The translations under genes and the position numbers were made by a program. A DNA stretch of 38,389 bases from Enterobacteria phage SfI: sequence record JX509734; one strand, given 5' to 3'. The notes under the pieces are model-generated. The model was given only the letters and a program-made list of their open reading frames with translations. It made no database searches and was not told where the DNA came from. This document shows positions 18,227-38,314 of this stretch, one piece after another; positions within the stretch are counted from its first letter, which is position 1; each line of letters begins with the position of its first letter.

Positions 18227-19747
18227 CTATAGGTTAAGTTTTTTGTTAAATACTAATATTACTCTTCCTTCAAAGTTCAAAACTTCGTCAGGCTTACCTA
18301 ATTGTTCTTGAATACCTGCAAGGCAGGATGTCATTTCTTTACATCGTTCAGGTTCGTTAGCTATGGAAACTGCTATAAACTGTCGCTCAGGAGCAGAATT
18401 GAACGCCTCCTTGCTATGCCAAGAAGCCAGTGTCTGTTGTCTCACGCCAGTAAAGTTAATTTTCCCCGAATCAGCATTAAAGAAAACAGGAGTTATCTGT
18501 ATGTCCCCACCAGATAACCAATTTACAGTCATTGACAAATCCCAAAAAGAGCCGTACCCATAATGGAGATTATTTTTTTTTAAAAAATCAATGTATGATT
18601 TAACAATCTTCTCCTGATCGTGTAATGGTGAAGCATTATTTGTGTAAGATTTAATTGAACTGATCGAAAATAAAAATGCGATTAGATAAAATAATATCTT
18701 TGCTTTTGTTGATGTACCGATACAGCACAATATCAGTGCGAAACAGGTAACATTCATAAAGAAACGCATGCTAATATAATCAGGGGATTTATAGCTCAGT
18801 ATGAATGATGAGACAATACCTGCGATAGATAATAATGAAAATAACACAATATAAATACGGTATGTGTTTTTTTTATTGTCCGATAAAACAAACCACGCAG
18901 ATGTAATAATGGCAATGAACCAAATGACAAATGAGGCGTAAGATGTTGCGTTATTGTCGACAACTAATAAATTAAGACTTTTTCCTATTAACAGAATGCA
19001 CCATTTTGCATTTAAAATCATATCATTGAGTGATACAATTTCAAATTGGTGGGGAGGTATGTTAAGTAGATTTTGCAATACATTGGAAAGAGAGATTAAA
19101 CATGCAAATAGTATTAATGCAGTATGCTTAAATAATTTTTTATCCCATACAGAGAATAAAAAGTAAGATATTAATAGTGGAATAAAAAATGCAGCTGTAA
19201 ACCACGGATCGGATACGCTGGAAAATAATGCTGTCAAACTTAAGAGGAGAGTGATAAATATATTTTTATACTGTATGTTGAAAACAGATATAAGCAAGCA
19301 TAAAAAGCCGAAAGCGTTTGTTGAATTATGAGAAAAAGGATGTGATACAAAACCATAAGTGTATGAAAAATATGGTATTAGAGATAGAAGTATAATAGAA
19401 AATAAAGCAGGGGTAAACCCGAATGCCTTACGTAGCGTTAACATCGCTGCTATTACTATAGCAATAGAGAAAACTGCAGTTGATAATCTTAATGCTACTA
19501 AGCCATCATCACCTAACAGCATATAAAATAAAAAGTTAATTGGGTAAACGGTGAAATACCAATTATCCACGGTTGGTTTCCAGTCGTGGATTGATGATAT
19601 ACCATTCTCTAAAATATGCCTCCATACAATTGGGCTGTTAGCAACATCCGGTTCAACTGGAAAGTATCTGGTAGTCAACCAAGTTATTAGGAGTGCTGAT
19701 AAAGCCAATAATATTTTTAATGCTGATTGTTTAATACATATGCTCAT
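18227..19747 (-). CDS. GtrC-family serotype-specific O-antigen glucosyltransferase (polytopic membrane protein)
   Basis: 506-aa very hydrophobic, AT-rich ORF directly downstream of gtrB in the same operon; gtrC genes are the variable, serotype-defining member of gtr cassettes. Confidence 0.72.
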   Translation of the reverse strand: MSICIKQSALKILLALSALLITWLTTRYFPVEPDVANSPIVWRHILENGISSIHDWKPTVDNWYFTVYPINFLFYMLLGDDGLVALRLSTAVFSIAIVIAAMLTLRKAFGFTPALFSIILLSLIPYFSYTYGFVSHPFSHNSTNAFGFLCLLISVFNIQYKNIFITLLLSLTALFSSVSDPWFTAAFFIPLLISYFLFSVWDKKLFKHTALILFACLISLSNVLQNLLNIPPHQFEIVSLNDMILNAKWCILLIGKSLNLLVVDNNATSYASFVIWFIAIITSAWFVLSDNKKNTYRIYIVLFSLLSIAGIVSSFILSYKSPDYISMRFFMNVTCFALILCCIGTSTKAKILFYLIAFLFSISSIKSYTNNASPLHDQEKIVKSYIDFLKKNNLHYGYGSFWDLSMTVNWLSGGDIQITPVFFNADSGKINFTGVRQQTLASWHSKEAFNSAPERQFIAVSIANEPERCKEMTSCLAGIQEQLGKPDEVLNFEGRVILVFNKKLNL

Positions 19748-21290: not shown

Positions 21291-22454
21291 TTACACATCA
21301 TTAGTACCTTCCTTATTTTTTGACTGGGACAAATTTGGGACCGATGGGTTCAGGATCGAGTCTATTTGCCGTGCGTGTTCGGTAAGGTGATTAGGTGCAA
21401 GGTGAGCATATCGACGAACCATTTCGATAGACTCCCAGCCTCCCATTTCCTGTAACACTGACAATGGGACTCCGGCTTGAACCAGCCAACTTGCCCAGGT
21501 GTGTCTCAAGTCGTGAAATCTGAAATCATCAATACCAGCCCGTCTCAGCGCCGCTTTCCAGGCTGTGTTTGCGTCATACCGCATCTTCCTTACTGTTGGC
21601 GCTTTCGTTCCGTCTGGTTTGGTACAGCTTTCCTTGTATACAAATACCCAACGGTGATGATTCCCGATTTGTTTTTTCAATACGCGACATGCAGTATCAT
21701 TCAGCGCAACGCCAATTGCGCGGTTTGATTTACTCTCTTCCGGGTTTATCCATGCCACCCGGCGCTGCATGTCTATTTGTTGCCATTCAAGGTTGATGAT
21801 GTTCGAGCGTCTTAAGCCTGTTGCCAGTGCAAATTCAACAACAGACTTTAATGGCTCCGGACATTCATCAATCAGCCTTTGTGCTTCATGAGGCTCCAGC
21901 CAGCGGATACGTTTATTCTTCGGTTGAGGCACTTTAATAATTGGTGCCTTATCCAGCATTTTCCATTCACGCTCTGCGGCTCTTAGCAGGGCCTTTATAA
22001 ATGAAAGATGCGTAGCCTTCGTTGCAACGGACGCTGGTTTTGGCGTGTATTCTGGAACAGGTTTCCCTTTTTTTCTGCATGCTTCTGCCCTGAGTTTCCA
22101 GTTTTCCTCATGACGCCGGTTCGTCATTTTCTGCATTGCTGAATAAATTTTTGATTCAGTAATGTCTTTTAGTTGCATTCCTGCGAAATGTTGAAGCCAG
22201 AATCCGATCCGGCTTTTGTCATCGTCCAGTGATTTTTTATGTGCTTTCTCTTCGAGCCACCTGACACACGCTTCCTCAAACGTCATATCAGGTATTTCAC
22301 CAAGTTTGCTGACCCGCCATGCTTCAGCCTTTAGCTTGTCATGGAGCTCTGTCGCCTGCCTTTTGTCCTTTGTTCCAAGAGACTGTTTAAATCTTTTACC
22401 GTTCGGCAATGTGAAACTGGCGTACCATATTTCACTTCTGCGGAAGAGTGACAT
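21291..22454 (-). CDS. int: Tyrosine integrase (P22 Int-like)
   Basis: 387-aa ORF ([47 protein letters not shown]...) with C-terminal [11 protein letters not shown]...RYAHL catalytic signature; adjacent to attP. Confidence 0.9.
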
Positions 22455-22681
22455 TTTCTTTCCTCTGTTATGCCATCACCCGCGCTCACCTTGATAGTAT
22501 GCAGCGGAGACTGAAGCGCCGCAATGCAGGCTTGTCGCGTTGTGAGGTAAGGAGATTTTGGTTTAGTGGGGTCTTTGCGTGTTGCCTGTAGGCGGCCTGT
22601 TCGTATCCAGTTGGTGGCGGTTGGTCTGGATATCTTAAGAAACTGACAGGCCTCATCGAGTGTGAGGCTGTATGTTTCCAT
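22331..22681 (-). CDS. xis: Excisionase (P22 Xis-like)
   Basis: Track ORF 22331..22711; GAGG RBS favours the ATG at 22681 ([33 protein letters not shown]...); overlaps the int 5-prime end. Confidence 0.78.
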
Positions 22682-22931
22682 GGTTACCTCTGCTTTTTGA
22701 ACGCATGTCACGTAACTTCTTAATGTGTTCTGCCGTTTCGATCTCTTCTGCTATCCGATCTGCATCAGCTTTATTCACAGGTTCAAAGTCATGATTAAAG
22801 CGGAACATGCTGGCGATACATGTTCTGCCTTTTCGGATGTAGTGAACTTTGTTGTGGGTAGAACGCAGGATTTTGCAGGGAGTGCCGTGGTGGTCGACGT
22901 ACCAGGTGTTAGGCAAAATGATTCTGAACAT
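22653..22931 (-). CDS. Hypothetical protein
   Basis: 92-aa ORF with GAGGTG RBS; lies in the pL-distal accessory region. Confidence 0.5.
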   Translation of the reverse strand: MFRIILPNTWYVDHHGTPCKILRSTHNKVHYIRKGRTCIASMFRFNHDFEPVNKADADRIAEEIETAEHIKKLRDMRSKSRGNHGNIQPHTR

Positions 22932-22978
22932 TTTTACACCTCAGTTGGACGATGTTGAAATTTGCTGCCTTGAGGCCA

Positions 22979-23197
22979 TCACAGTCCCCATTGTTTGTTC
23001 TTAAGTTCGATCTCCTCCTGGCAACTTGCACAAGTCCGACAACCCTGAACAGCCAGGCGTCTTCGCTCATCTATCGGATCGCCACACTCACAACAATGAG
23101 TTGCGGATACAGTCTGGTAGTTCAGACGACGCATTTTTATTGCTGTATTGCGCTGTAATTCTTCGATTTCTGATGCTGAATCAATGATGTCTGCCAT
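22979..23197 (-). CDS. TraR/DksA-family C4 zinc-finger protein
   Basis: 72-aa ORF with CxxC-x17-CxxC (CECG...CRTC) and the size typical of phage TraR homologues. Confidence 0.68.
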   Translation of the reverse strand: MADIIDSASEIEELQRNTAIKMRRLNYQTVSATHCCECGDPIDERRRLAVQGCRTCASCQEEIELKNKQWGL

Positions 23198-23295
23198 CTT
23201 TCATTAATCCCTGAATTGTTGGTTAATACGCTTGAGGGTGAATGCGAATAATAAAAAAGGAGCCTGTAGCTCCCTGATGATTTTGCTTTTCATGT

Positions 23296-23511
23296 TCACC
23301 GTTCCTTAAAGACGCCGTTTAACATACCGATTGCCAGACTTAAGTGAGTCGGTGTGAATCCCATCAGCGTTACCGTTTCGCGGTGCTTCTTTAGTACGCT
23401 ACGGCAAATGTCATTGACGTTTTTATCCGGAAACTGCTGTCTGGCTTTTTTGATTTCATAATTAGCCTGACGGGCAATGCTGCGAAGGGCGTTATTATGT
23501 TCTATTGTCAT
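23296..23511 (-). CDS. Hypothetical protein (71 aa)
   Basis: Track ORF 23296..23649; RBS GAGG placed 9 nt upstream of the ATG at 23511, which sits 8 nt downstream of the preceding gene stop. Confidence 0.45.
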   Translation of the reverse strand: MTIEHNNALRSIARQANYEIKKARQQFPDKNVNDICRSVLKKHRETVTLMGFTPTHLSLAIGMLNGVFKER

Positions 23512-23518
23512 ATTGGCC

Positions 23519-24271
23519 TCACACTTCGAATGCCAGTTGAGGGGTAAAGACGTCCCGTTCAGCGTTGTAATTAAGTGAACTGGCACTGTTGAATGATTCA
23601 ATGCGTTCCACAAGAACTTGCGTACGGGTTTCTTTACTTGCGGGAGCATATGGCGAACCTACCCAGGATTTGTCGATGCCTATATTTCTTGCGACGTTCG
23701 TGCTGTCTGCAGACGAAAGCGGTACATGAGTAAAAATGTCTTTATTTAACATCCGTAACCCATGAATCTTGGTGATTGGGTAGCCGTACTGATCTACAAC
23801 ATGACGTATAAGATCGCGTAGTTTAGCCCGACACGCTCTCGGTCGTTTTGCATCGTATTCCCCCATCGAGCCGATGCAGACGCGGGGAAACTCATGGCAC
23901 AGACGAATAAATCGCTCATCTGGTTCGTTCATGTGCCACACCGGAGCACCAATAAATTTACCGTGAGGCCATGCCGCAATCAGGGCGTCATTCTCTTCAC
24001 TGGTTCCGCCGATAACATCCGGGATAACCGCGAATGAGAAACGAGGGTGATTGCCCCAGCGTTCAACAAATCTGTAATATTCATTCCAGTCTACGGCCTT
24101 GTTTTTTGTCCAGAATGTGAATGCACCATTATCAAGAGCAAATGATTGGGTGACTTCGGAAGCCAGATCAATCTGAGCTGGATTAGCAAAACTGATGAAT
24201 GCGTGTCTGCCTTTCCAGGCTTTCAACGCACAGGTATCGGGAGTTATTGGACCACCGTGAAAATGAATCAT
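23519..24271 (-). CDS. TGT-fold protein, candidate DpdA-like DNA-guanine transglycosylase (7-deazaguanine DNA modification)
   Basis: 250-aa ORF with GGGAGAG RBS. By eye it carries LDNGAF (compare DSGGFQ of tRNA-guanine transglycosylase), IGSMG (compare LMGVG) and SADSTNVARNIG (compare DCVMPTRNARNG) in the right order, and lacks the C-terminal zinc site, as phage DpdA proteins do. The gene is solid; the functional call is inference. Confidence 0.45.
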   Translation of the reverse strand: MIHFHGGPITPDTCALKAWKGRHAFISFANPAQIDLASEVTQSFALDNGAFTFWTKNKAVDWNEYYRFVERWGNHPRFSFAVIPDVIGGTSEENDALIAAWPHGKFIGAPVWHMNEPDERFIRLCHEFPRVCIGSMGEYDAKRPRACRAKLRDLIRHVVDQYGYPITKIHGLRMLNKDIFTHVPLSSADSTNVARNIGIDKSWVGSPYAPASKETRTQVLVERIESFNSASSLNYNAERDVFTPQLAFEV

Positions 24272-24432
24272 ACACTCTCCCGTTTATTATTTATCTCCTC
24301 AGCCAGCCGCTGGGCTTTCAGCGGATTTCGGATAACAGAAAGGCCGGGAAATACCCAGCCTCGCTTTGTAACGGAGTAGACGAAAGTGATCGCGCCTACC
24401 CGGATATTATCGTGAGGATGCTTCATCGCCAT
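24268..24432 (-). CDS. Lambda orf60a-like small protein
   Basis: 54-aa ORF ([54 protein letters not shown]) overlapping the exo stop and ATGA-coupled to the downstream gene; under 60 aa so absent from the track. Confidence 0.5.
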
Positions 24433-25103
24433 TGCTCCCCAAATACAAAACCAATTTCAGCCAGTGCCTCGTCCATTTTTTCGATGAACTCCGGCACCAT
24501 CTCGTCAAAACTCGCCATGTAATTTTCATCCCGCTCAACCACGACATAATGCAGGCCTTCACGCTTCATTCGTGGGTCATAGTTGGCAAAGTACCAGGCA
24601 TCTTTTCGCGTTACCCACATGCTGTACTGCACCTGGGCCATGTAAGCCGACTTTATGGCCTCGAAACCACCGAGCCGGAATTTCATGAAATCCCGGGAGG
24701 TAAACGGGCATTTCAGTTCAAGGCCGTTGCCGTCACTGCATAAACCATCGGGAGAGCAGGCGGTGCGCATATTTTCGTCGCGATAGATGATCGGGGATTC
24801 AGTAACATTCACGCCGGAAGTGAATTCAAACAGGGTTCTGGCGTCGTTCTCGTACTGTTTTCCCCAGGCCAGCGCCTTAGCATTAACTTCCGGAGCCACA
24901 CCGGTGCAAACCTCAGCCAGCAGGGTGTGGAAGTAGGACATTTTCATGTCAGGCCACTTCTTTCCTGAGCGGGGCTTTGCTATCACGTTGTGAACTTCTG
25001 AAGCGGTGATGACGCCGAGCCGTAATTTGTGCCATGCATCATCCCCCTGTTCGACAGCTCTCACGTCGATCCCGGTACGCTGCAGGATAATGTCCGGTGT
25101 CAT
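24423..25103 (-). CDS. exo: Lambda-type 5-prime to 3-prime exonuclease Exo (Red-alpha)
   Basis: 226-aa ORF ([53 protein letters not shown]...) matching lambda Exo as remembered; coupled to bet. Confidence 0.9.
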
Positions 25104-25885
25104 GCTGCCACCTTCTGCTCAGTGGCTTTCTGTTTCAGGAATCCAAGAGCTTTCACTGCTTCGGCCTGTGTCAGTTCTGACGATGCGCGAATGTCGCGGC
25201 GAAATATCTGGGAACAGAGCGGCAATAAGTCGTCATCCCATGTTTTATCCAGGGCGATCAGCAGAGTGTTAATCTCCTGCATGGTTTCATCGTTAACCGG
25301 AGTGATGTCGCGTTCCGGCTGACGTTCTGCAGTGTATGCAGTATTTTCGACAATGCGCTCGGCTTCATCCTTGTCATAGATACCAGCAAATCCGAAGGCC
25401 AGACGGGCACACTGAATCATGGCTTTATGCCGTAACATCCGTTTGGGATGCGACTGCCACGGTCCGGTGATTTCTCTGCCTTCGCGGGTTTTGAATGGTT
25501 CGCGGCGGCATTCATCCATCCACTCGGTAACGCAGATCGGATGATTACGGTCCTTGCGGTAAATCCGGCATGTGCAGGATTCATTGTCCTGCTCAAAGTC
25601 CATGCCATCAAACTGCTGGTTTTCATTGATGATACGGGACCAGCCATCAACGCCCACCACCGGAACGATGCCGTTCTGCTTGTCAGGGAAGGCGTAAATT
25701 TCTTTCGTCCACGGATTAAGGCCGTACTGGTTGGCGACGATCAACAATGCGATGAACTGCGCATCGCTGGCATCACCTTTAAATGCCGTCTGGCGAAGAG
25801 TGGTGATCAGTTCCTGTGGGTCGACAGAATCCATGCCGACACGTTCAGCCAGCTTCCCAGCCAGCGTTGCGAGTGCTGTACTCAT
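25100..25885 (-). CDS. bet: Bet single-strand annealing protein (Red-beta)
   Basis: 261-aa ORF ([66 protein letters not shown]...) matching lambda Bet as remembered. Confidence 0.9.
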
Positions 25886-25890
25886 CCGTT

Positions 25891-26307
25891 TTATACCTCT
25901 GAATCAATATCAACCTGGTGGTGAGCAATGGTTTCAACCATGTACCGGATGTGTTCTGCCATGCGCTCCTGAAACTCAACATCGTCATCAAACGCACGGG
26001 TAATGGCTTTTTTGATGGCCCCGTGGCGTTGCAAATGATCGAAGCATAGCGATTCAAACAGGTGCTGGGGCAGGCCTTTTTCCATGTCGTCTGCCAGTTC
26101 TGCCTCTTTCTCTTCACGGGCGATCTGCTGGTAGTGACGCGCCCAGCTCTGAGCCTCAAGACGATCCTGAATGTAATAAGCGTTCATGGCTGAACTCCTG
26201 AAATAGCTGTGAAAATATCGCCCGCGAAATGCCGGGCTGATTAGGAAAACAGGAAAGGGGGTTAGTGAATGCTTTTGCTTGATCTCAGTTTCAGTATTAA
26301 TATCCAT
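25891..26307 (-). CDS. gam: Gam, RecBCD inhibitor
   Basis: 138-aa ORF ([61 protein letters not shown]...) matching lambda Gam as remembered. Confidence 0.9.
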
Positions 26308-26405
26308 TTTTTATAAGCGTCGACGGCCTCACGAAACATCTTTTCATCGCCAATAAAAGTGGCGATAGTGAATTTAGTCTGGATAGCCATAAGTGTTTGA
26401 TCCAT
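26262..26405 (-). CDS. kil: Kil (host cell-division inhibitor)
   Basis: 47-aa reading frame [47 protein letters not shown] inside track ORF 26262..26531, with GGAG RBS; overlaps the gam start as in lambda. Confidence 0.72.
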
Positions 26406-26538
26406 TTTTTGGGACTCCTGGCTGATTAAGTATGTCGATAAGGCGTTTCCATCCGTCACGTAATTTACGGGTGATTCGTTCAAGTAAAGATTCGGAAGGG
26501 CAGCCAGCAACAGGCCACCCTGCAATGGCATATTGCAT
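26374..26538 (-). CDS. cIII: cIII, FtsH (HflB) protease inhibitor
   Basis: 54-aa frame read by hand ([54 protein letters not shown]), overlapping the kil start; under 60 aa so absent from the track. Confidence 0.8.
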   Translation of the reverse strand: MQYAIAGWPVAGCPSESLLERITRKLRDGWKRLIDILNQPGVPKNGSNTYGYPD

Positions 26539-26610
26539 GGTGTGCTCCTTATTTATACATAACGAAAAACGCCTCGAGTGAAGCGTTATTGGTATGCGGT
26601 AACGCCGCGC

Positions 26611-26979
26611 TCAGGCGGCTTTGATAGTCATATCATCTGAATCAAATATTCCTGATGTATCGATATCGGTAATTCTTATTCCTTCGCTACCATCCATTGG
26701 AGGCCATCCTTCCTGACCATTTCCATCATTCCAGTCGAACTCACACACAACACCATATGCATTTAAGTCGCTTGAAATTGCTATAAGCAGAGCATGTTGC
26801 GCCAGCATGATTAATACAGCATTTAATACAGAACCGTGTTTATTGAGTCGGTATTCAGAGTCTGACCAGAAATTATTAATCTGGTGAAGTTTTTCCTCTG
26901 TCATTACGTCATGGTCGATTTCAATTTCTATTGATGCTTTCCAGTCGTAATCAATGATGTATTTTTTGATGTTTGACAT
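26611..26979 (-). CDS. ea10: Ea10-like protein
   Basis: 122-aa ORF with GAGGA RBS, at the lambda ea10 position between cIII and ral; identity from memory of size and context. Confidence 0.6.
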   Translation of the reverse strand: MSNIKKYIIDYDWKASIEIEIDHDVMTEEKLHQINNFWSDSEYRLNKHGSVLNAVLIMLAQHALLIAISSDLNAYGVVCEFDWNDGNGQEGWPPMDGSEGIRITDIDTSGIFDSDDMTIKAA

Positions 26980-26995
26980 CTATTCATATCCTCAC

Positions 26996-27024
26996 AGAAA
27001 AAAATCGCCCTCACACTGGAGGGC
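26996..27024 (-). terminator. Rho-independent terminator (tL2-like) in the pL operon
   Basis: On the minus strand GCCCTC-CAGTGT-GAGGGC hairpin followed by GATTTTTTTCT, between ral and ea10. Confidence 0.5.
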
Positions 27025-27181
27025 AAAGAAGATTTCCAATAATCAGAACAAGTCGGCTCCTGTTTAGTTACGAGCGACATTGCTCCGTGTATTCACTCGT
27101 TGGAATGAATACACAGTGCAGTGTTTATTCTGTTATTTATGCCAAAAATAAAGGCCACTATCAGGCAGCTTTGTTGTTCTG

Positions 27182-27361
27182 TTAACCAAGTTCTCTGGCA
27201 ATCATTGCCGTCGTTCGTATTGCCCATTTATCGACATATTTCCCATCTTCCATTACAGGAAACATTTCTTCAGGCTTAACCATGCATTCCGATTGCAGCT
27301 TGCATCCATTGCATCGCTTGAATTGTCCACACCATTGATTTTTATCAATAGTCGTAGTCAT
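27182..27361 (-). CDS. ral: Ral-like restriction alleviation protein
   Basis: 59-aa frame read by hand (MTTTIDKNQWCGQFKRCNGCKLQSECMVKPEEMFPVMEDGKYVDKWAIRTTAMIARELG); lambda Ral as I remember it is a few residues longer at the C-terminus. Confidence 0.62.
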   Translation of the reverse strand: MTTTIDKNQWCGQFKRCNGCKLQSECMVKPEEMFPVMEDGKYVDKWAIRTTAMIARELG

Positions 27362-27431
27362 ACGGATAGTCCTGGTATTGTTCCATCACATCCTGAGGAT
27401 GCTCTTCGAACTCTTCAAATTCTTCTTCCAT
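27345..27431 (-). CDS. Small acidic peptide (28 aa), lambda orf28-like
   Basis: MEEEFEEFEEHPQDVMEQYQDYPYDYDY with GAGGTG RBS; overlaps the ral start. Confidence 0.3.
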   Translation of the reverse strand: MEEEFEEFEEHPQDVMEQYQDYPYDYDY

Positions 27432-27631
27432 ATATCACCTCAAATAAGTTGTTTGCTGCGAAAGTAAATACGCTTAAGTTACCTGTTATTTATTCCACCA
27501 AGTTCCGTATCTATCTATCCAGTTACACCAATCATCGACACTCCATTTTGTTGTGTCGCATTTTGGCAACTGGCATGAATATCTACCTTCTTTGTAAAGT
27601 CGGCGTTTGACTTTCTTGAGCATGGCTCACC

Positions 27632-27964
27632 TCAATCGTAATAAGCTGGAATTGATTTTCCGCGTTGCTTCTGGCGGCCTGAGCAAGTCACACCCATTTC
27701 ACAGCGTGGCTTGCTGTACCATGTGCGCTGATTCTTGCGCTCAATACGTTGCAGGTTGCTTTCAATCTGTTCGTGGTATTCAGCCAGCACCGTAAGGTCT
27801 ATCGGATTCAGTGCGCTTTCTACTCGTGATTTCGGTTTGCGATTCAGCGAGAGAATAGGGCAGTTAACTGGTTTTGCGCTTACCCCAACCAACAGGGGAT
27901 TTGCTGCTTTCCATTGAGCCTGTTTCTCTGCGCGACGTTCGCGGCGGCGTGCTTGTGCATCCAT
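27632..27964 (-). CDS. N: N antiterminator (lambda-type, Arg-rich motif)
   Basis: Track ORF 27632..28054; true start at MDAQARRRERRAEKQAQWKAANPLLVGVSAKPVN... (ATG at 27964, preceded by AGGAGAATCCAG); the C-terminal about 25 aa differ from lambda N as remembered. Confidence 0.82.
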   Translation of the reverse strand: MDAQARRRERRAEKQAQWKAANPLLVGVSAKPVNCPILSLNRKPKSRVESALNPIDLTVLAEYHEQIESNLQRIERKNQRTWYSKPRCEMGVTCSGRQKQRGKSIPAYYD

Positions 27965-28074
27965 CTGGATTCTCCTGTCAGTTAGCTTTGAGTAACGCGC
28001 CGTGATGCTTATCTCCACGGTTGCTGTCTTGCAGCTGCATTTCGCGCTACTCAAAGCCTTCTGCTTTGAATGCT

Positions 28075-28105
28075 GCCCTTCTTCAGGGCTAAATTTTTAA
28101 GAGCC
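28075..28105 (-). promoter_or_regulatory. nutL site (boxA-like GCTCTTA plus boxB GCCCTGAAGAAGGGC)
   Basis: On the minus strand GCTCTTAAAAATTTAGCCCTGAAGAAGGGC; boxB is a perfect 5-bp stem with GAAGA loop; boxA differs at one position from the lambda CGCTCTTA. Confidence 0.7.
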
Positions 28106-28145
28106 TCACCTTCAATGGTGGTCAGTGCGTCCTGCTGATGTGCTC

Positions 28146-28208
28146 AGTATCACCGCTAGTGGTATTTATGTCAACACCGCCAGAGATAATTTATCACCGC
28201 AGATGGTT
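28146..28208 (-). promoter_or_regulatory. pL promoter with oL1-oL2-oL3 repressor operators
   Basis: On the minus strand TTGACA (28169-28174) and GATACT (28146-28151) with 17-bp spacing; three 17-bp operators at 28148-28164, 28172-28188 and 28192-28208 with the TATCACCGC half-site. Confidence 0.8.
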
Positions 28209-28353
28209 ATCTGTATGTTTTTTATATGAATTTATTTTTTGCAGGGGGCATTGTTTGGTAGGTGAGAGATCTGAATTGCTATGTTTAGTGAGTTGTATCT
28301 ATTTATTTTTCAATAAATACAATTGGTTATGTGTTTTGGGGGCGATCGTGAGG

Positions 28354-28380
28354 CAAAGAAAACCCGGCGCTGAGGCCGGG
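28354..28380 (-). terminator. Terminator downstream of rexB (timm-like)
   Basis: CCCGGC/GCCGGG stem with 6-nt loop immediately after the rexB stop, followed on the minus strand by TTTTCTTTG. Confidence 0.45.
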
Positions 28381-28815
28381 TTATTCTTGTTCTCTGGTCA
28401 AATTATATAGTTGGAAAACAAGGATGCATATATGAATGAACGATGCAGAGGCAATGCCGATGGCGATAGTGGGTATCATGTAGCCGCTTATGCTGGAAAG
28501 AAGCAATAACCCGCAGAAAAACAAAGCTCCAAGCTCAACAAAACTAAGGGCATAGACAATAACTACCGATGTCATATACCCATACTCTCTAATCTTGGCC
28601 AGTCGGCGCGTTCTGCTTCCGATTAGAAACGTCAAGGCAGCAATCAGGATTGCAATCATGGTTCCTGCATATGATGACAATGTCGCCCCAAGACCATCTC
28701 TATGAGCTGAAAAAGAAACACCAGGAATGTAGTGGCGGAAAAGGAGATAGCAAATGCTTACGATAACGTAAGGAATTATTACTATGTAAACACCAGGCAT
28801 GATTCTGTTCCGCAT
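28381..28815 (-). CDS. rexB: RexB, membrane channel of the Rex abortive-infection/exclusion system
   Basis: 144-aa polytopic membrane ORF immediately downstream of rexA in the cI operon; AT-rich. Confidence 0.85.
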   Translation of the reverse strand: MRNRIMPGVYIVIIPYVIVSICYLLFRHYIPGVSFSAHRDGLGATLSSYAGTMIAILIAALTFLIGSRTRRLAKIREYGYMTSVVIVYALSFVELGALFFCGLLLLSSISGYMIPTIAIGIASASFIHICILVFQLYNLTREQE

Positions 28816-33199: not shown

Positions 33200-33640
33200 A
33201 TGAAAAAACTAACCTTTGAAATTCGATCTCCAGCACATCAGCAAAACGCTATTCACGCAGTACAGCAAATTCTTCCAGACCCAACCAAACCAATCGTAGT
33301 AACCATTCAGGAACGCAACCGCAGCTTAGACCAAAACCGAAAGCTTTGGGCTTGCCTTGGTGACGTCTCTCGTCAGGTTGAATGGCATGGTCGCTGGCTG
33401 GATGCAGAAAGCTGGAAGTGTGTGTTTACCGCAGCATTAAAGCAGCAGGACGTTGTTCCTAACCTTGCCGGGAATGGCTTTGTGGTAATAGGCCAGTCAA
33501 CCAGCAGGATGCGTGTAAGCGAATTTGCGGAGCTATTAGAGCTTATACAGGCATTCGGTACAGAGCGTGGCGTTAAGTGGTCAGACGAAGCGCGACTAGC
33601 TCTCGAATGGAAAGCGCGATGGGGAGATCGGGCTGCATGA
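33200..33640 (+). CDS. ninB: NinB (Orf family recombination mediator)
   Basis: Track ORF 33182..33640; start taken at MKKLTFEIRSPAHQQNAIHAVQQILPDPTKPIVVTIQERNRSLDQNRKLWA... Confidence 0.8.
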   Translation: MKKLTFEIRSPAHQQNAIHAVQQILPDPTKPIVVTIQERNRSLDQNRKLWACLGDVSRQVEWHGRWLDAESWKCVFTAALKQQDVVPNLAGNGFVVIGQSTSRMRVSEFAELLELIQAFGTERGVKWSDEARLALEWKARWGDRAA

Positions 33641-34164
33641 CTATCAAATCAAATACGCCAGCACACGACAAGGACTGCTGGCAAACGCCGCTTTGGCTTT
33701 TTGATGCACTGGATATTGAGTTTGGATTCTGGCTGGATTCGGCAGCGAGCGACAAAAATGCTCTGTGCGCTCACTGGTTAACTGAGGCCGACGACGCGCT
33801 AAATTCTGAGTGGATAAGCCACGGTGCAATCTGGAATAACCCACCGTACAGCAATATCAGGCCGTGGGTGGAAAAAGCCGCTGAGCAGTGCATACAACAG
33901 CGACAGACGGTAGTGATGCTTGTGCCAGAGGATATGTCTGTCGGATGGTTCAGCAAGGCTCTGGAGAGTATTGACGAAGTTCGCATCATCACTGATGGAC
34001 GGATTAATTTTATCGAACCATCGACAGGGCTGGAGAAGAAGGGAAACAGCAAAGGTTCCATGCTGCTGATTTGGCGACCGTTCATCAATCCTCGACGGAT
34101 GTTTACTACCGTATCCAAAGCGGCATTGATGGCGATCGGGCAGGGCGTCAGGAGGGCAGCATGA
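33637..34164 (+). CDS. Phage Dam-like DNA N6-adenine methyltransferase (NPPY motif)
   Basis: Track ORF 33577..34164; ATG at 33637 is ATGA-coupled to the ninB stop; the 175-aa product has the WNNPPYS motif typical of N6-adenine methyltransferases; occupies the position of lambda ninC. Confidence 0.68.
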
Positions 34165-37694: not shown

Positions 37695-37898
37695 ATGAAA
37701 ATTCTCTGGGTCATCAGTCTTTTGTGTAGTGCTATTGGATTTATTGAAGGAATCCTCGGGGTTTTCGGTGCTCAGAGTGCTCCACAACAGGCTGCAGGTG
37801 CAGCAATGGGAGTAGCATGGGCAGTTATTCCATATTGTATTTGTCGTGCTATCCAACAATTGCGCCCTCGAGAAGTCATTATTAAAAAGGAAGAATGA
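37695..37898 (+). CDS. Small membrane protein (67 aa)
   Basis: GGAG RBS 8 nt upstream; hydrophobic N-terminus and a second hydrophobic segment; AT-rich; followed by its own terminator. Confidence 0.5.
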   Translation: MKILWVISLLCSAIGFIEGILGVFGAQSAPQQAAGAAMGVAWAVIPYCICRAIQQLRPREVIIKKEE

Positions 37899-37929
37899 CC
37901 AGATCTTATCCGGTGTTTTTTCTGTCTAA

Positions 37930-37951
37930 GCCTCGCGTCGCGGGGCTTTTT
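37930..37951 (+). terminator. Rho-independent terminator after the small membrane-protein gene
   Basis: GCCTCGC / GCGGGGC stem (one G-U pair) with 3-nt loop followed by TTTTTATT, 13 nt before the HNH start. Confidence 0.5.
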
Positions 37952-37963
37952 ATTGGAGCCAGC

Positions 37964-38314
37964 ATGCCACCACGAACCCCAAAAGCCTGCCGTGTTCGCG
38001 GCTGCCGCCATACCACAACTGACCCGTCAGGCTATTGCGAAAGCCACAAAAGTGAAGGCTGGAAGCAATACAAGCCGGGCCAGTCCAGACACCAGCGCGG
38101 TTATGGTTCGAAATGGGATGTTATCCGTGAACGTGTGCTCAAGCGTGACAAAGGACTGTGTCAGTTATGTCTGCGTGGTGGTGTGGTACGTGAGGCGAAA
38201 ACCGTTGACCACATCATCCCTAAAGCGCATGGCGGCACTGATGCCGACAGCAATCTGCAGAGCCTGTGCTGGCCGTGTCATAAGGCGAAGACGGCCCGTG
38301 AACGGTTGAAGTAA
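37964..38314 (+). CDS. HNH endonuclease (terminase-associated, HK97 gp74-like)
   Basis: Track ORF 37895..38314; start taken at the ATG at 37964 (GGAG RBS, downstream of the terminator); Cys-rich N-terminus and DHIIPKAHGG...N...CWPCHKAKT HNH motif; sits at the genome end opposite TerS. Confidence 0.8.
   Translation: MPPRTPKACRVRGCRHTTTDPSGYCESHKSEGWKQYKPGQSRHQRGYGSKWDVIRERVLKRDKGLCQLCLRGGVVREAKTVDHIIPKAHGGTDADSNLQSLCWPCHKAKTARERLK

Follow-up and report, generated by a model that had tools for sequence, protein, structure and literature searches.

The locus and its genes

Enterobacteria phage SfI (sequence record JX509734) was analysed as a stretch of 38,389 nucleotides (nt), referred to here as the window. 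On its minus strand, at 23519..24271, an open reading frame (ORF) with an ATG start encodes a protein of 250 amino acids (aa), which is predicted to be a singleton (stand-alone) transglycosylase of the DpdA family with the fold of tRNA-guanine transglycosylases (TGTs). Enzymes of the DpdA family exchange guanine in DNA for 7-deazaguanine bases, and Cui et al. (2023, PMC10516641) regard DpdA as a signature of DNA modification by 7-deazaguanines. The SfI gene and its product are called DpdA-like below.

Upstream, the DpdA-like gene adjoins an orf60a-like (DUF1317) gene of 54 aa (24268..24432, minus strand; phrog_1998). An earlier note on this DNA had described an ATGA overlap between the two, and the ATG of the DpdA-like gene indeed shares 4 nt with the TGA of the orf60a-like gene; a GGAG-type Shine-Dalgarno sequence lies 5' of this ATG. 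An orf61-like gene (23296..23511, minus strand; phrog_303) starts 7 nt past the DpdA-like stop codon. On the minus strand, the genes around it run in the order N, ral, DUF2528, cIII, kil, gam, bet, exo, orf60a-like, DpdA-like and orf61-like, followed by TraR/DksA-like, DUF4222, xis-like and int. A consensus scan places a pL-like promoter (TTGACA-17-GATACT; 28146..28174, minus strand) approximately 3.9 kb upstream of the DpdA-like gene, and, by analogy with lambda, this promoter is the presumed source of transcription for N, ral, cIII, kil, gam, bet, exo, orf60a and the DpdA-like gene. Directly 3' of the orf61-like gene, and still inside the early-left operon, a hairpin followed by a T-run (23257..23275, minus strand) resembles a terminator by pattern match only; the interval 22400-28400 holds 17 terminator-like sites, vs. 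6.6 +/- 2.9 in shuffled sequences.

The ORF at 23519..24271 is a real gene. A large protein collection contains 6182 homologues of its product, which form 894 clusters at 50% identity, and of 5426 complete E. coli genomes, 100 carry the allele with a nucleotide identity of ≥99%, always on the chromosome. Relatives with 85–91% amino-acid identity are just 72–77% identical in nucleotide sequence, with a nonsynonymous divergence (dN) of 0.07–0.12 and a saturated synonymous divergence (dS), which indicates strong purifying selection on the gene. As the earlier note had recognized, this is not a canonical lambda gene: lambda lacks it, and orf63 fills the interval between orf60a and orf61 in that phage.

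Family assignment

The earlier note had taken the protein for a DpdA-like enzyme of the TGT fold and had suggested profile and structure searches, and these place it in the TGT/DpdA superfamily, closest to phage DpdA. PHROG 887, which carries the name "queuine tRNA-ribosyltransferase", matches the DpdA-like protein with an E-value of 4e-99. By BLASTP, the protein is 39% identical to the DpdA of Pantoea phage MED16 (E=3e-47) and 36% identical to that of Salmonella phage 7-11 (E=1e-36), while tblastn finds loci of 67.6% identity in Salmonella phages SPN3UB and BTP1. A family profile, consisting of an alignment of 68 sequences down to 31% identity, was compared by hhalign with the DpdA of phage CAjan, a validated preQ0 transglycosylase of DNA (98.8%, E=1e-16, 174 columns), and with an 18-sequence profile of DpdA1 (E=8e-17, 174 columns); the same profile gave no match to the single sequence of E. 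coli Tgt. An AlphaFold2 model computed with the family alignment has eight beta/alpha units (pLDDT 93.8, pTM 0.90). In a Foldseek search of viral models (BFVD), all named matches with E<3e-3 are phage TGT/DpdA proteins (again under "queuine tRNA-ribosyltransferase"), and the Foldseek matches in the Protein Data Bank (PDB) are mostly generic TIM barrels.

Several standard searches were blank. The DpdA-like protein has no match in Pfam (including the PF01702 TGT model), NCBIfam or PADLOC; none of the 68 family members (68/68 scanned) matches a Pfam model; and phmmer/hmmsearch against PDB sequences returned only spurious GCN4 and HipT matches. The same is true of the controls, as the DpdAs of CAjan, MED16 and 7-11 give no Pfam match either, and CAjan DpdA and its family profile find no PDB sequence that could serve as a bridge to 7UI4 or TGT. 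Because a validated DpdA fails these searches too, the Pfam and PDB blanks are not evidence against a DpdA. They do leave a practical gap in annotation: PGAP, Pfam and NCBIfam leave the gene "hypothetical" (PGAP in 30 of the 30 E. coli matches listed), and PHROGs and the RefSeq phage records name a tRNA enzyme.

The idea is not new, since the family to which the DpdA-like gene belongs is a published one, with members in related phages already listed in 2019. Hutinet et al. (2019, PMC6884629) described a "third group" of 76 phages that have DpdA but no synthesis genes, noted a gamma-proteobacterial cluster of singletons, and listed HK106, SfI, SPN3UB, BTP1, SEN1, PEAT2, 7-11 and SE131 under singleton DpdA in their Supplementary Data 1. 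Membership through SPN3UB and BTP1 rests on the phage names in that list together with the tblastn identity.

Predicted active site

The pocket of CAjan DpdA comprises D63, S64, F67, D105, H132, G153, G154 and F189, with D206 as the nucleophile (Kot et al., 2020, PMC7544227). The equivalents in bacterial DpdA are D95, F99, D130, H181, G206/G207, L236 and D256 (Gedara et al., 2023, PMC10164549), and mutations have proven the roles of D95 and D256 (Gedara et al., 2023, PMC10164549). The CAjan residues were mapped onto the DpdA-like protein through the hhalign alignment. CAjan D63, the general acid/base aspartate (bacterial D95), corresponds to D47, which is conserved in 68/68 family members, and the nucleophile D206 (bacterial D256, TGT D280/D264) corresponds to D189, which lies within the short motif SADST and is conserved in 67/68. 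These are the two catalytic aspartates that the earlier note had picked. The other pocket positions are F51 for CAjan F67 and bacterial F99 (F in 49 and Y in 16 of the 68 sequences, thus F/Y in 65/68), H113 for H132, the histidine after beta5 (67/68), G134 of the beta6 glycine loop for G153 (65/68), and L172, a hydrophobic residue of beta7, for F189 (63/68). At two positions the residue is altered, with N48 in place of S64 and S135 in place of the second glycine, G154.

All three of the TGT-like motifs named in the note are present as written, namely LDNGAF (46–51), IGSMG (133–137) and SADSTNVARNIG (187–198). LDNGAF, which contains D47 and F51, aligns with LDSGAF of CAjan. IGSMG was probably paired wrongly with the "LMGVG" strand of TGT; it is the counterpart of the loop at beta6, which reads GGLAVG in E. 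coli Tgt and GGMVG in CAjan DpdA, and the counterpart of the "LMGVG" strand is 169-IHGLRM-174. Two conserved residues had also been overlooked. H170 is invariant (68/68) and aligns with CAjan H187. D85 is nearly invariant (67/68) and is located at the end of beta4, three residues upstream of G88. It is G88 that hhalign pairs with the base-recognising D105 of CAjan (bacterial D130, TGT D156), and this position is variable in the family (D in 35, G in 19 and E in 5 of 68).

E. coli Tgt has a zinc motif of the form CDCYTC...H. The DpdA-like protein, inspected over all 250 aa, has no CxCxxC...H motif, no zinc site and no C-terminal tRNA-binding module; its only cysteines are at residues 14, 125, 132 and 147. 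The missing C-terminal zinc site had been anticipated, and CAjan DpdA lacks one likewise.

Genomic context

The neighbourhood of the gene was compared in 80 related loci from IMG/VR, which were found with a 16-sequence alignment, include only relatives of at least 85% identity and are partly redundant. An orf60a-like gene is immediately upstream in 36 of the 80, and an orf61-like gene is immediately downstream in 24. In 35 of the 80, an immediate neighbour of the DpdA-like gene on the same strand encodes a DNA methyltransferase. These adjoining genes come from three unrelated families: MT-A70 (20 loci), a 657-aa fusion of C5-cytosine methylase and Dam (10 loci), and N6_N4_Mtase (5 loci).

A second line of evidence comes from near-identical sister prophages at the same tRNA-Thr/proA site, in which the slot between orf60a and orf61 holds one of three cassettes: the DpdA-like gene; a phage N6-adenine (Dam) methyltransferase (sister prophage L003, 2860-3417); or a gene for a 414-aa protein of the PAPS-reductase family together with a class I SAM methyltransferase gene and a hypothetical gene (sister prophage L004, 2836-5275). 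The slot thus behaves as an exchange point for DNA-modification genes, and the arrangement suggests that these cassettes replace one another as alternatives. Both the methyltransferase neighbours in 35/80 loci and the Dam and PAPS-reductase swaps in the slot support a role for the DpdA-like protein in DNA modification.

Gene fusions were also found. In a phage-like metagenomic contig, a complete QueD/PTPS domain is joined to a DpdA-like domain (P0244; L012, 2840-3847). A P2/186-like prophage has, immediately upstream of gpA, a truncated D12 Dam joined to a DpdA-like domain that lacks beta1-beta2 (P0231; L013, 8001-9266), and this Dam fusion counts as evidence of former adjacency only. A further fusion, to a baseplate protein (P0267), was set aside because it probably arose by mis-assembly or read-through.

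The remainder of the phage

Viewed in full, the window is a temperate phage with a mosaic genome (1-21200 and 26000-37100 were compared). Its late genes, the gtr O-antigen-conversion genes and int are approximately 98% identical to those of Shigella phages SfII, SfV and SfIV, while the early and nin regions are approximately 97% identical to lambda and ev243. The phage closest in its late region, SfII, does not have the DpdA-like gene. Gam, Ral and a Dam-like methylase, which the earlier note had placed in the same phage, are all present. The last is a Dam-type N6-adenine DNA methyltransferase (33577..34164, plus strand; PF05869, E=3e-64) encoded in the nin region after NinB, where the lambda record has NinC, a PAPS-reductase-like protein. 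With it the phage has a second DNA-modification gene, independent of and outside the DpdA unit.

Three other features of the window may be recorded. A 506-aa ORF (18227-19747, minus strand) occupies the position of the serotype-specific gtr glucosyltransferase and is matched only weakly in PHROG (E=1e-7, function unknown); it coincides with an incomplete match to SfII and may be a different serotype-specific gene. RexA and RexB (PF15969, PF15968; 28381-29670, minus strand) are found beside the repressor, as in lambda. At its right end the window carries an HNH endonuclease gene (37895-38314, plus strand; phrog_144, E=5e-48), which comes shortly ahead of the terminase genes of the left end, and this HNH-terminase layout across the ends is the usual arrangement of cos phages.

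Precursor supply

No homologue of FolE, QueD, QueC or QueE was detected in the window: queried by tblastn with the proteins of CAjan, it yielded matches with E>0.2 only, and no FolE, QueD, QueC, QueE or YhhQ-like gene turned up when the remaining ORFs were scanned with Pfam and PHROG. The genes for preQ0 synthesis are likewise absent from 80/80 of the related IMG/VR loci, searched together with as much as 10 kb of sequence to either side. This bears out the earlier statement that the phage has no queC/D/E-type genes and would depend on host preQ0. Since the phage lacks FolE, QueD, QueE and QueC, the base must come from the queuosine pathway of the host, either as preQ0 or as the precursors ADG or CDG. 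Such a supply is feasible for a lone phage DpdA, because the DpdA of phage 9g, expressed alone in E. coli MG1655, produced 84–790 dPreQ0 per 10^6 nt of plasmid DNA (Hutinet et al., 2019, Table 1, PMC6884629). A scan of the neighbouring genes found no ParB-like ATPase near the DpdA-like gene.

Proposed function and alternatives

We consider it probable that the DpdA-like protein is a singleton phage DpdA, that is, a TIM-barrel enzyme of the TGT superfamily that acts on DNA, uses a 7-deazaguanine base made by the host, and leaves a sparse mark. The gene would be silent in the lysogen and its product made after induction or infection, as is suggested by its early-left operon position between the recombination genes and xis/int; upon induction, it would be transcribed from pL. 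Following the chemistry of TGT and DpdA, a target deoxyguanosine would be flipped out of the helix, D189 would attack C1', and guanine would be released, leaving a covalent enzyme-DNA intermediate. D189 probably owes its position to H170. D47 is proposed to serve as the general acid/base, which would activate (deprotonate) N9 of the incoming 7-deazaguanine base and so resolve the covalent intermediate. The base could be sandwiched by F51 and L172, with its edges read by D85, H113 and the G134-S135 loop.

By analogy with 7-11 and MED16, the expected product would be sparse dADG and/or dPreQ0. The DNA of phage 7-11 contains dADG at 50 per 10^6 nt, or 0.02% of G (PMC6884629), and that of MED16 contains dADG at 0.13% of G (PMC8306585). 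At these levels, which are taken from the relatives, the 19,239 G residues of the SfI genome would yield approximately 4–25 modified sites per 38-kb genome, and so low a number suggests a rare target motif. The enzyme would then play a role like that of an orphan DNA methyltransferase, placing an epigenetic mark on progeny DNA, and the mark would blunt some host nuclease or other DNA-sensing defence.

A number of points weigh against this interpretation. The presence of G88 at the position of CAjan D105, with the invariant D85 upstream of it, means that the pocket, as read from the alignment, may differ from those of the characterised DpdAs. Bacterial DpdA depends on an ATPase, DpdB (PMC10164549), for which the phage has no counterpart. 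The link between the dADG in 7-11 and MED16 DNA and the DpdAs of these phages is presumptive, and the nucleoside found is dADG instead of dPreQ0. Mycobacteriophage Orion, which belongs to a different singleton cluster and infects a host without preQ0 synthesis, showed no modification (PMC6884629). The proposal of the earlier note that the modification protects phage DNA from restriction is shown only for the heavily modifying DpdA1 phages. Relatives in the singleton group have 0.02–0.13% dADG (PMC6884629, PMC8306585), and in MED16 this dADG did not measurably impede any restriction enzyme that was tried (PMC8306585).

Of the other explanations, an enzyme that acts on DNA without inserting 7-deazaguanine, such as a guanine-excising glycosylase or a transglycosylase for another base, with a function in, e.g., host DNA damage, recombination or replication, is unlikely, though the likeliest of them. 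The three mapped differences in the pocket (Ser replaced by N48, Gly by S135, and CAjan D105 by G88), the trace level of modification in relatives and the proximity of the gene to exo and bet would all agree with it. Nevertheless, conservation extends to the residues binding the guanine/7-deazaguanine scaffold, one member of the family is fused to QueD, an enzyme of the preQ0 pathway, and dADG occurs in two phages whose sole 7-deazaguanine-related gene is a homologue of the DpdA-like gene. It is very unlikely that the protein is instead a phage tRNA-guanine transglycosylase that changes the queuosine status of host or phage tRNA in order to tune translation, even though it shares the superfamily and the catalytic residues of such enzymes and is given the name "queuine tRNA-ribosyltransferase" by PHROG and RefSeq. 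These names are automatic transfers, which have been attached to the proven DNA enzyme of CAjan as well; the profile that matches phage DpdA at 98.8% finds nothing in E. coli Tgt; the zinc subdomain and the C-terminal parts with which TGTs bind tRNA are missing; and the neighbours are DNA methyltransferases, not tRNA genes.

Less credible again is a Cap10-like enzyme, which would handle, remove or hijack a 7-deazaguanine attached to protein, for example against type IV CBASS or QatABCD-type defences that have QueC/TGT homologues. H170 does resemble the histidine of the H226/D248 pair of Cap10, but CAjan DpdA has the same His-Asp pair (H187/D206), homology at the sequence level leads to phage DpdA, and the window contains no Cap9/QueC-like or CD-NTase partner and no PADLOC match, the neighbours being lambda early genes. 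That the gene is a decaying or functionless passenger of the variable ea/b region is hardly credible. Lambda does without it, and PGAP calls it "hypothetical" in all of the E. coli matches listed (at least 30), but a dN of 0.07–0.12 with saturated dS, the invariance of D47 and H170 and the near-invariance of D85, H113 and D189 across 68 diverged sequences, the 6182 homologues and the intact translational coupling all argue for a functioning gene.

Returning to the singleton DpdA, a broader proposal may be put forward, although we regard it as speculative and rather doubtful. The singleton DpdAs of temperate enterobacterial phages could be interchangeable "orphan modification" cassettes, which would turn queuosine intermediates of the host into a rare, motif-specific dADG or dPreQ0 mark that mimics or pre-empts a self-mark of the host (e.g., of the Dpd type) or evades another defence. 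The altered pocket, with D85 and with glycine at the aspartate position, might select ADG or CDG over preQ0; if so, this would explain the dADG found in relatives without DpdC. Among the DpdA groups, the singletons are both the largest and the most poorly understood, and an inducible lambda-like E. coli prophage is the most tractable system in which to study them, given the full set of que mutants and the ease of phage recombineering.

Comparison with known systems

Cap10 of type IV CBASS (PDB 9NTN) binds the deazaguanylated N-terminus of a CD-NTase and has Cap9 as its partner. The DpdA-like protein is 10% identical to Cap10, has no sequence-level match to it and is not accompanied by partner genes. 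The bacterial DpdA of the Salmonella Montevideo Dpd system (PDB 7UI4) is an enzyme of 413 residues, with a structural Zn2+ site and DpdA-specific insertions. Besides its ATPase DpdB, it works with DpdC, which converts preQ0 to ADG, and with restriction components, none of which are found here.

DpdA1 of the Queuovirinae (Escherichia phages CAjan and 9g) has a homologous catalytic barrel (98.8% by hhalign). The catalytic aspartate pair, the histidine, the glycine loop, the hydrophobic sandwich positions and the lack of a zinc site are common to DpdA1 and the DpdA-like protein, and 9g DpdA1 can also draw on the preQ0 that E. coli itself makes. In contrast to CAjan DpdA, to which it is 19% identical, the DpdA-like protein is approximately 55 residues shorter and has glycine at the D105 position. 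While DpdA1 phages carry folE, queD, queE and queC, along with a transporter, the phage described here is without all four of these genes. In DpdA1 phages, up to 25–32% of G is replaced, at GA/GGC motifs, and this leads to broad restriction resistance.

The closest counterparts are the singleton DpdAs of the phages SPN3UB, BTP1, 7-11, SE131 and SEN1 (Salmonella), HK106 (E. coli), SfI (Shigella) and MED16 (Pantoea), which form the same protein family as the DpdA-like protein. In this group, dpdA is found without genes for preQ0 or G+ synthesis and in hosts that make queuosine, which is the situation here, and only the DNA of 7-11 and MED16 has been analysed; a search of the literature turned up no experiments on singleton DpdAs of lambdoid or P22-like phages. 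In BTP1, the gene is likewise located early-left, between the recombination genes and xis/int. The DpdA-like protein and its close relatives have in common a conserved C-terminal helix region (approximately residues 200–232) for which the C-termini of the MED16, 7-11 and HK106 proteins offer no alignable counterpart, and the BLAST alignments to these three end near residue 197. Relative to the other singleton members, the DpdA-like gene is a different orthologue, carried by a mosaic phage in which SfII-type late genes are combined with lambda-type early genes.

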